DNA of 23,134 nucleotides, taken from a virus. Lineage: Duplodnaviria; Heunggongvirae; Uroviricota; Caudoviricetes. The translations under genes and the position numbers were made by a program. Location: the IMG/VR virus record IMGVR_UViG_2651869694_000013. One strand, given 5' to 3'. Positions 17,069 through 18,064 of the stretch are shown in pieces; position 1 is the stretch's first letter; the number at the start of each line of letters is the position of its first letter. Under the pieces are notes generated by a model, which made no database searches, was not told the DNA's origin, and saw nothing but the letters and a program-made list of their open reading frames with translations.

Positions 17069-17110
17069 CGCCATGATTGCCACGGATGGCAACATATTAA
17101 CGGCATAATA

Positions 17111-17139
17111 TTGACTTTTTGAATAACTTTGGGGAAACT
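17111..17139 (+). promoter_or_regulatory. Late promoter pR' with overlapping qut-like region
   Basis: TTGACT -35 (17111-17116), 17-bp spacer, GAAACT -10-like hexamer; the layout parallels the lambda pR' as I recall it. Downstream sequence diverges from lambda and shows no obvious tR'. Confidence 0.55.
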
Positions 17140-17305
17140 TGACATCAATAATGGGCGTTTTTTACATGTCATTGATGAGTCTCAATAACCTGCCGCCGAG
17201 TAGTTTTTATGCTCTGAATTGTATTTGTGTAGTAAACATGCTGACTGCAATGTAATAGAGTTTTTTTAGCCTGTAACCTCTTGACGGCATTGAATTGCTT
17301 TTGTT

Positions 17306-18064
17306 ATGAGTTGTAAGCCAATGTTATCATCTTGTATTGGGGTGGTTATGAAGGATGGTGCGCTGCTCAGGAGTTCTTCACTTTTTATTGCCTACATGGG
17401 ATGCCTTGGATGGGGGAGTGCTTATTTCTATGGATGGGGTACTTCTTTTTACTACGGCTTCCCATGGTGGATTGTAGGTGCAGGTGTTGATGATGTTGCC
17501 AGAAGTTTATTTTTTGCAGTTATCGTCATTGCTATATTTCTTATCGGTTGGGGTATTGGTGTTGTATTCTTTTTCGCAGTGAAAAGAAAACATTCTATGC
17601 AAGAGCTAAATGTATTTCGCCTTTATTTTGCTGTGGAATTATTGTTTGTGCCGGCAATTATTGAGTTTTCTATATTGAGACAGAAGATTCAGGTACCTCT
17701 TTTGCTACTGTCAGCAGCGATTGCGCTGGCGGTTACAATTTCGATAAGATCTTATGGGCGATTTTTATCGGTATCATGCTTCTATGATAAGCCATTTATA
17801 AAAAAACATTTTTTTGAGATTGTGATGATTGCTTTTGTGGCATATTTCTGGCTTTTTTCATTTCTGACAGGATATTACAAACCACAGTTTAAGAAAGAAT
17901 ATGAAATGATTAATTATAATGATGGTTGGTATTATGTTCTTGCTCGTTATGATAATTGTCTGGTTTTGTCTACTTCTTTCAATGCAGGTAGTAAAAGGTT
18001 TGTCATTTATCAATCAGCACAAGATAAGAATCTTCAGGTTGATATTGTAAGGACCAGAATTTAA
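17306..18064 (+). CDS. Predicted polytopic inner-membrane protein (~5 TM helices plus soluble C-terminal tail); late-region moron
   Basis: 252-aa AT-rich ORF between pR' and the esterase gene. Start uncertain: the ATG at 17347 has a GGGGTGG Shine-Dalgarno-like tract, and a TTGACG-17-TTATGA promoter-like motif sits at 17281-17309. No family recognised. Confidence 0.6.
   Translation: MSCKPMLSSCIGVVMKDGALLRSSSLFIAYMGCLGWGSAYFYGWGTSFYYGFPWWIVGAGVDDVARSLFFAVIVIAIFLIGWGIGVVFFFAVKRKHSMQELNVFRLYFAVELLFVPAIIEFSILRQKIQVPLLLLSAAIALAVTISIRSYGRFLSVSCFYDKPFIKKHFFEIVMIAFVAYFWLFSFLTGYYKPQFKKEYEMINYNDGWYYVLARYDNCLVLSTSFNAGSKRFVIYQSAQDKNLQVDIVRTRI

Follow-up and report, generated by a model that had tools for sequence, protein, structure and literature searches.

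STM1630 (SL1344_1560) of Salmonella Typhimurium is a chromosomal gene situated between steB and sseJ. It is bound by H-NS (PMC6785131, supplement) and is expressed in medium inducing Salmonella pathogenicity island 2 (SPI-2) and in macrophages (PMC6785131). Proteins of the same family are encoded by phage 434 (CPT_434_68, annotated as 'putative membrane protein'; OL657226.1) and by phage 2B8 (gp58). Here we describe a gene of this family in the Caudoviricetes record IMGVR_UViG_2651869694_000013 of IMG/VR, the whole stretch of which (23,134 nucleotides) was analysed and is referred to below as the window. The gene (17348..18064, + strand) codes for a predicted inner-membrane protein of 238 residues and belongs to the STM1630/'TfpB' (PF27470)/PHROG 1521 family. 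It would be the lead gene of an AT-rich moron, i.e. a self-contained additional transcription unit inserted between Q and the esterase gene, in a cargo slot of lambdoid prophages. The reading that we prefer, tentatively and at slightly less than even confidence, is that of a lysogen-expressed, autonomous, periplasm-facing inner-membrane protein which modifies the envelope behaviour of its host in animal-associated bacteria.

The window protein is 46% identical to STM1630 over the full 238 residues (100% of the query, E = 1e-70) and resembles it in length, in its N-terminal aromatic motif and in its C-terminal domain; the GC content of STM1630 is 37%. The two genes differ in their setting, the window gene being prophage-borne, in their upstream region and promoter, and in what follows them, neither a TciB-like gene nor PasD being found after STM1630. 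CPT_434_68 is 100% identical and gp58 97.9% identical to the window protein, and in both phages the downstream order is that of the window (TciB-like gene, PasD-like interval, SASA esterase gene). In phage 434, however, the gene follows a Q82-like Q gene and an intact tR' hairpin, whereas in the window it follows a lambda-type Q gene and pR' with a decayed hairpin. With the late-region morons and lysogenic-conversion genes of lambdoid phages (stx in 933W, bor and lom) the window gene shares the stx slot, a deviant base composition and a promoter-like element, but it has no sequence or fold relation to them and its product is an inner-membrane protein rather than a toxin or an outer-membrane protein.

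A preliminary description of this DNA had called an open reading frame (ORF) of 252 residues (17306..18064, +), a pR'-like promoter and a private promoter motif, and all three are present at the positions that it gave. Its start codon, ATG 17306, is probably wrong. ATG 17348, which gives the gene of 238 residues used here, is almost certainly the true start, since the homologues are nearly all 237-238 residues long (among 108 relatives), the identical protein in RefSeq (WP_001299184.1) starts at MKDGALL, GGGGTGG lies directly 5' of this ATG, and ATG 17306 has no Shine-Dalgarno sequence and falls within the -10 hexamer of a promoter-like block that is conserved. The gene is a real one, and purifying selection acts on its protein sequence. 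The ORF goes beyond chance because it has 108 homologues, because pairwise ratios of nonsynonymous to synonymous substitution rates (dN/dS) between alleles are 0.07-0.27, unsaturated pairs included, and because PHROG 1521, a family of unknown function, is matched with E = 2e-154 (residues 31-252 of the 252-residue call against profile positions 1-222 of 222).

The 108 relatives were found by a word-index search and every one carried the precomputed Pfam label PF27470 ('TfpB'), which is present on close and distant members, including a cluster representative that is 100% identical across the whole query. Their hosts are Escherichia coli, Shigella, E. albertii, Citrobacter, Salmonella, Klebsiella, Enterobacter, Cronobacter and Yersinia. 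WP_001299184.1 is named 'STM1630 family protein' in RefSeq. The statement that the protein has no recognizable family was thus mistaken, as it is a full-length member of PHROG 1521 and carries both the RefSeq name and the PF27470 label. Local profile searches of Pfam-A, NCBIfam and PADLOC gave no meaningful match for the protein, the Pfam copy searched being one without the PF27470 model. The gene had been correctly spotted but was already catalogued as a hypothetical one (PHROG 1521, STM1630 family, PF27470). The matched families are all uncharacterized, and a clear assignment to a routine phage function, which the preliminary description had named as an outcome that would count against it, was not obtained.

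The Pfam name 'TfpB' probably goes back to the ORF tfpB of the Moraxella pilin-inversion region; no pilin genes flank the family members examined (Neisseria arctica and Avibacterium among them). TfpB of Acinetobacter baylyi, the type IV pilus extension ATPase, is a cytoplasmic enzyme that has only the name in common with the family. Literature searches for 'TfpB' returned mostly chemistry and anaesthesia papers together with this unrelated ATPase, and searches for 434B, TciB/DUF3927 and the accession numbers returned nothing relevant.

An exhaustive hidden Markov model search of 1.84 billion cluster representatives gave just 70 hits. The named distant full-length members are 'hypothetical proteins' of Neisseria, Gallibacterium, Avibacterium, Actinobacillus, Pasteurella, Mannheimia, Klebsiella electrica and Mangrovibacter, and several further ones are metagenome sequences. 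A profile scan of genome contigs gave six loci and added a copy in Haemophilus ducreyi. All named family members come from animal-associated Enterobacteriaceae, Pasteurellaceae and Neisseria. Of 5,426 complete E. coli genomes, 682 (~13%) contain at least 80% of segment 17000-18650. Identical intact copies of the membrane-protein gene number in the hundreds, and the databases also hold many truncated or frameshifted copies. Only three of 50,697 phage records encode the protein, namely that of phage 434 and two of phage 2B8. A contig of 3,054 bp from a 'Veillonella sp.' metagenome-assembled genome (JAIITD010000172.1) is 100% identical to the E. coli prophage segment with lambda Q, the membrane protein and TciB; its assignment to Veillonella is almost certainly a binning error.

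The gene is AT-rich relative to the phage genes on either side, as had been noticed: its GC content is 36.3%, compared with 50.6% for Q, 55.5% for the esterase gene and 47% for the window, and at third codon positions the values are 31, 49 and 61% for the three genes, respectively. Its alleles are all AT-rich (36-42% GC). The base composition of the element is thus unlike that of its flanks, as is typical of morons, and it is likewise present in some homologous phages and absent from others at a module boundary: lambda has no membrane-protein gene here, whereas 434 and 2B8 carry the insert. Homology to phage 434 (96%) spans 17187-20480 of the window. Because homology to lambda ends at 17155 and homology to 933W resumes at 18595, just 5' of the SASA/NanS-p esterase gene, 17156-18594 occupies the position of the tRNA and stx2AB genes; the equivalent interval of 933W contains terminators, three tRNA genes and stx2AB. 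The earlier proposal that this Q-to-lysis interval is a cargo site, at the locus where Shiga toxin (Stx) phages carry their toxin genes, is borne out by this comparison. The esterase gene (18608..20458, +; NanS-p-like, with DUF1737, SASA and DUF6645 domains from Pfam) forms the 3' boundary of the slot.

Upstream of the gene a promoter-like block (17281..17310, +) consists of a -35 element TTGACG (17281-17286), a TG (17302-17303) and a -10 element TATGAG (17305-17310), the spacer between the two hexamers being 18 nt. In nearly all prophage alleles (54-100% protein identity) the pattern CTTGAC(T/G)-18 nt-TGnTATG(T/A) recurs, at position -67/-68 relative to the ATG, and it is the best-conserved stretch of an otherwise diverged upstream region. 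The private promoter had originally been written as TTGACG-17-TTATGA, a motif that is indeed present; conservation of the block across divergent alleles bears out the idea of a promoter of its own, now re-read as TTGACG-18-TG/TATGAG. As to the remaining mark of a moron, a promoter and a terminator of its own, this block is conserved and the sole downstream terminator is shared with a PasD-like small RNA (sRNA).

The Q gene (16445..17068, +; PF03589, E = 1e-57) is of the lambda type, with 203 of 207 residues (98%) identical to lambda Q. Base-for-base alignment with lambda placed the late promoter pR' with qut at 17111..17152 (+), with -35 TTGACT at 17111-17116, a spacer of 17 nt, -10 GAAACT at 17134-17139 and a -10-like AATAAT at 17147-17152, where lambda has the sigma-dependent pause element. 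Q, the promoter hexamers and the pause element are all in the lambda register, and by analogy with lambda the region would function as pR'/qut. Homology to lambda is 95% identity up to 17155 and is then lost, which matches the pR'-like TTGACT and subsequent divergence reported at first. The intrinsic terminator that follows shortly 3' of pR' in a lambda-type late unit is missing from the window: a consensus scan found no terminator-like site between pR' and the ORF and folding of 17180-17215 gave no terminator hairpin, in line with the first impression that no tR'-like terminator precedes the ORF. The remnant of tR' that is present (AACCTGCCGCCGAGTAGTTTTTATG, 17187..17211, +) is decayed; its homologue in phage 434 (AAACCCGCTGCCGAGTGGGT8) is an intact hairpin with a folding energy of -13.3 kcal/mol. 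A weak hairpin at 17141-17181 was considered as an alternative tR' and rejected, since its energy was no better than that of shuffled sequences (z = 0.32) and no U-run follows it.

For comparison of the upstream regions, 165 loci with upstream sequence were used, representing 70 distinct upstream regions. Most alleles carry a GC-rich hairpin followed by a T-run ~25 nt 5' of the promoter block, the arms of which vary compensatorily among alleles (CCCGCTGCCGAGTGGG, CCCGCCATCGAGCGGG, CCCGTGACCGAGCGGG and CCAGCC...GGTTGG); this hairpin is tR'. Among loci with the 100% identical allele, all those with a Q82-like Q gene (as in 434) keep the intact hairpin (-13.3 kcal/mol), and all those with a lambda-type Q gene carry AACCTGCCGCCGAGTAGTTTTT, in which both arms are mutated, the T-run is shortened and no terminator fold is formed. 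Since every lambda-Q locus is decayed and the other Q types keep the hairpin, the absence of tR' is a lineage-wide decay of an ancestral terminator and not a local accident. In phage 434 (L003, 1459-3789) the Q82-like Q gene is preceded by a lambda-type Q gene of which only an N-terminal fragment is left, by lpxR (lipid A deacylase) on the reverse strand and by ylcG. Recombination has thus re-joined the cargo module to different Q modules.

Directly downstream lies a gene for a small membrane protein of the DUF3927/TciB-like type (18150..18308, +; 52 residues, TTG start; PF13064, E = 1.4e-14; PHROG 1470 'TciB-like'), the counterparts of which in phages 434 and 2B8 are annotated as TciB. It is followed by a region (18319..18524, +) that matches the PasD/STnc100 family over the full model length (Rfam RF02076, E = 7e-7), with 37.7 bits against a gathering score of 47, and is very probably a PasD sRNA gene as judged from its sequence and context. 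The interval from TciB to the esterase gene is ~99% identical to phages 2B8 and 434, and in 2B8 pasD is reported to lie directly 5' of the esterase gene (preprint 10.64898/2026.05.13.724894). The first strong terminator after pR' has its stem at 18495-18513 and a T-run (T8) at 18514-18521 (-16.1 kcal/mol); it is most likely the PasD terminator because the PasD-like match ends there and the interval is ~99% identical to that of 2B8. TTGACT at 18313-18318 is a possible -35 element of the sRNA gene. A 64-residue ORF (18365-18559, +), annotated as 'putative membrane protein' in phage 434, was rejected as a gene, as a 1 nt indel breaks the ORF in 434 and 2B8 and as it overlaps the sRNA and its terminator.

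These elements suggest the following scheme of expression. In the lysogen, the membrane-protein gene would be transcribed from its own sigma-70 promoter, TTGACG-18-TGtTATGAG. With the intervening tR' hairpin decayed in the lambda-Q lineage, transcription from the constitutive pR' should there additionally run through the cargo up to the PasD terminator. After induction, Q-modified polymerase would transcribe the membrane-protein gene as the first late gene. Transcripts from pR' and from the moron promoter would both end at the PasD-like sRNA terminator. Transcription of the slot in lysogens is supported by the neighbouring sRNAs, the Pas sRNAs being among the most abundant Hfq-bound sRNAs in uninduced enteropathogenic E. 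coli E2348/69 (10.64898/2026.05.13.724894).

Kyte-Doolittle analysis gave four clear transmembrane (TM) segments and an aromatic and glycine-rich N-terminal helix. The AlphaFold2 model calculated with a deep alignment (mean predicted local distance difference test score, pLDDT, 77.9; predicted template modelling score, pTM, 0.71) superseded an earlier one that was based on a shallow, enterobacterial-only alignment (pLDDT 58.7). It contains five long helices (10-36, 47-78, 89-111, 116-136 and 155-181 in the 238-residue numbering) followed by a C-terminal five-strand beta domain (184-235), so that the polytopic protein with about five TM helices and a C-terminal tail envisaged in the preliminary description is reproduced by the model. 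The family-wide mean number of lysine and arginine residues is 1.9 in the N-terminal tail, 0.0 in loop 1, 2.7 in loop 2, 0.5 in loop 3 and 3.0 in loop 4. Because these charges alternate, the positive-inside rule predicts a cytoplasmic N-terminus and a periplasmic location for loop 1, loop 3 and the C-terminal beta domain; the predicted periplasmic placement holds whether or not helix 1 spans the membrane fully.

The most conserved parts of the protein are the end of helix 1 with loop 1 and the five-strand beta domain after helix 5. Conservation is highest in TM1 and loop 1 (A15, W22, A25, Y26, Y28, W30, G31, Y35-G37, P39 and W40), where the motif WGSAYFYGWG.SFYYGFPWW is found, with further peaks at G175, Y185 and Y195. 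The conserved residue types are A, Y, W, G, P and F; none of the residues conserved across the family is a typical catalytic or polar catalytic one, which favours binding or gating at the periplasmic face over catalysis. What the protein binds or gates would accordingly be met on the outer side of the inner membrane. The model showed no significant resemblance to solved or viral structures, no fold relative of known function was obtained and a sequence profile gave no match in the PDB; the remote-homology check advised at the outset thus yielded no relative of known function by sequence or by fold. Weak recurrent fold hits were to MscS-family chains and to SH3-like domains of integrases. MscS-type channels likewise have a TM bundle followed by a small five-strand beta domain, and the likeness to them and to SH3-like beta domains is architectural only.

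Comparison of the locus across related prophages, which had also been recommended, showed that divergent alleles always lie directly after Q genes, with variable genes downstream. At least four kinds of Q are involved (lambda-like long Q, Q82-like, a 180-residue type and lambda Q itself), and what follows includes genes for a DNA methylase, for a regulator of the AraC-like type and for a TerB-like protein, as well as lysis cassettes and the esterase gene. An obligate TfpB-like/TciB pair was considered and rejected, since only ten of 65 divergent alleles have a TciB-like gene nearby and Salmonella and H. ducreyi lack one. Many IMG/VR loci (L015, L018 and L026 among others) carry an identical membrane-protein/TciB/PasD-like block with no esterase match downstream of +1260 from the gene start by tblastn, which points to a different gene there or to a difference between contigs or assemblies. 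Three IMG/VR prophages have a divergent allele (54-57% identity) in a pR'/post-Q unit together with stx2AB. The order is Q, membrane-protein gene, three tRNA genes and stx2AB in L107 (3995-6418), the same with two extra genes in L149 (4001-7550), and Q, stx2AB and membrane-protein gene in L154 (2540-4714). By its C-terminus (...SQSLYTTGE) the Stx2A resembles a 2c/2d-type variant.

Outside prophages the gene stands alone. The Salmonella copy lies between sseJ and unrelated genes: on its contig STM1630 adjoins a protein with Sif and Lipase_GDSL domains, i.e. SseJ, and locus tables list it (717 bp) next to sseJ. The H. ducreyi copy lies between rpoH and mqo, and those of Neisseria arctica and Avibacterium are found among housekeeping genes. 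As these copies are solitary, the protein functions in the absence of both a linked partner and a phage. STM1630 is co-regulated with SPI-2 and PhoP genes. Signature-tagged STM1630 mutants were reported to be attenuated in calves and chickens, and a deletion in strain 4/74 replicates more in macrophages (PMC6785131). Together the Salmonella data, which are the only experimental ones for the family, suggest host-associated phenotypes rather than phage defence. The role of the window protein would most likely be to adapt the envelope of the lysogen to life in an animal, as a case of lysogenic conversion, and not to serve a step of the phage cycle.

Several points weigh against such a role. Identity of 46% is no guarantee that STM1630 does the same as the window protein, and the Salmonella phenotypes are modest and inconsistent: the deletion causes no growth defect in LB, and the -10 element is inactivated in ST313 at no obvious cost (PMC6785131). 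The mutant was hypermotile in one screen, for the resistance cassettes of which a follow-up with unmarked deletions raised possible polar effects. The topology is a model prediction and the mechanism is unanchored, there being no fold or sequence relative of known function. The activity of the 17281-17310 promoter block is predicted from its sequence, as is expression in the lysogen, where H-NS may silence so AT-rich a gene. Finally, a function in the phage cycle would also agree with the finding that, with Q genes of at least four types, this gene is the one that comes first behind pR'.

That last point underlies the possibility that the protein is a late-phase accessory which, as the first pR' product, readies the envelope for lysis or release (for example through holin timing or by preventing loss of progeny on debris). 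The gene also shares its strand and transcription unit with the esterase, holin and endolysin genes. We nevertheless regard this as improbable, given that the gene is absent from lambda and 933W and nearly all phage records, has its own promoter 3' of tR', has homologues outside any prophage and lies ~2.7 kb from the holin gene. The protein itself had no holin match in Pfam, the true holin being encoded elsewhere, beside the lysozyme gene (see below). Still less probable is a functionless passenger in E. coli, silenced by H-NS and kept only by sitting in a recombination-prone slot. The AT-rich DNA, the H-NS-bound Salmonella orthologue with its promoter naturally inactivated in ST313 and the many truncated or frameshifted database copies would agree with it, but strong purifying selection among intact alleles, the conserved promoter block and hundreds of identical intact copies speak against it.

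Exclusion genes are classically prophage genes that encode a polytopic membrane protein and have a promoter of their own, and the window gene is laid out in this way. Superinfection exclusion or abortive infection (Abi), in which the protein made in the lysogen would block phage DNA entry or collapse the membrane in the manner of SieA, Imm, HK97 gp15 or RexB, is the alternative to be taken most seriously, although we consider it rather unlikely. Glycine-zipper-like motifs in TM1 and TM2 (GWGSAYFYGWG and GWGIG) could support oligomeric pores, and the swapping among prophages of many divergent alleles (54-100% identity) is what an arms race would be expected to produce. However, dN/dS is low throughout and gives no hint of diversifying selection, and several species have stable solitary copies among housekeeping genes and not in defence islands. 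STM1630 shares its regulation with SPI-2 and PhoP genes, and the window already has a classical exclusion/Abi gene in its immunity region, a SieB homologue at the canonical site (7566-8120, +; PF14163, E = 1e-29), next to the N gene (8121-8522, -) and the gene for a CI-like repressor (9198-9830, -). An Abi or exclusion function, suggested in the preliminary description, gained no support from sequence, as PADLOC gave no match and PHROG hits were only to families of unknown function, or from fold, as no described system was matched.

The gene order around the cargo is Ant/KilAC, YbcO, RusA, NinH, Q, [cargo], esterase, P21-type holin, DUF1327, lysozyme and Rz/Rz1. The P21-type holin gene (20759-20965, PF04971 in Pfam) adjoins the lysozyme gene (21345-21878), with a DUF1327/YdfR-family gene (20970-21302, +) between the two. 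A second AT-rich island (GC 0.37-0.39, ~2000-3000) lies between the integrase and recombination genes and contains an ORF of 200 residues without a Pfam match (2171-2773, +), which is possibly another moron.

Three features of this locus are modestly new: a private promoter that is conserved, a loss of tR' that is specific to the type of Q, and a linkage to PasD as well as, in some prophages, to stx2. A broader proposal, which we hold to be doubtful as a whole, is that the STM1630/'TfpB' family is a previously unrecognized kind of single-gene, periplasm-facing inner-membrane effector, carried as the first post-Q gene of lambdoid prophages (434 and some Stx2 prophages among them), that excludes phages or alters the envelope for animal colonization, and that decay of tR' turned the constitutive pR' into a lysogenic promoter in the lambda-Q lineage. 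If true, expression of the cargo would be coupled to the control point that governs Shiga toxin. The gene sits at the control point driving Shiga toxin and in some prophages lies within the stx2 unit itself. Its segment is among the commonest uncharacterized cargo of E. coli lambdoid prophages, with divergent alleles adding to the 682 of 5,426 genomes counted above. The contrast between intact tR' (Q82-like Q) and decayed tR' (lambda Q) amounts to a natural experiment on how leakiness of a late promoter serves to express lysogenic cargo, and a function for the family would annotate hundreds of genomes as well as the textbook phage 434.

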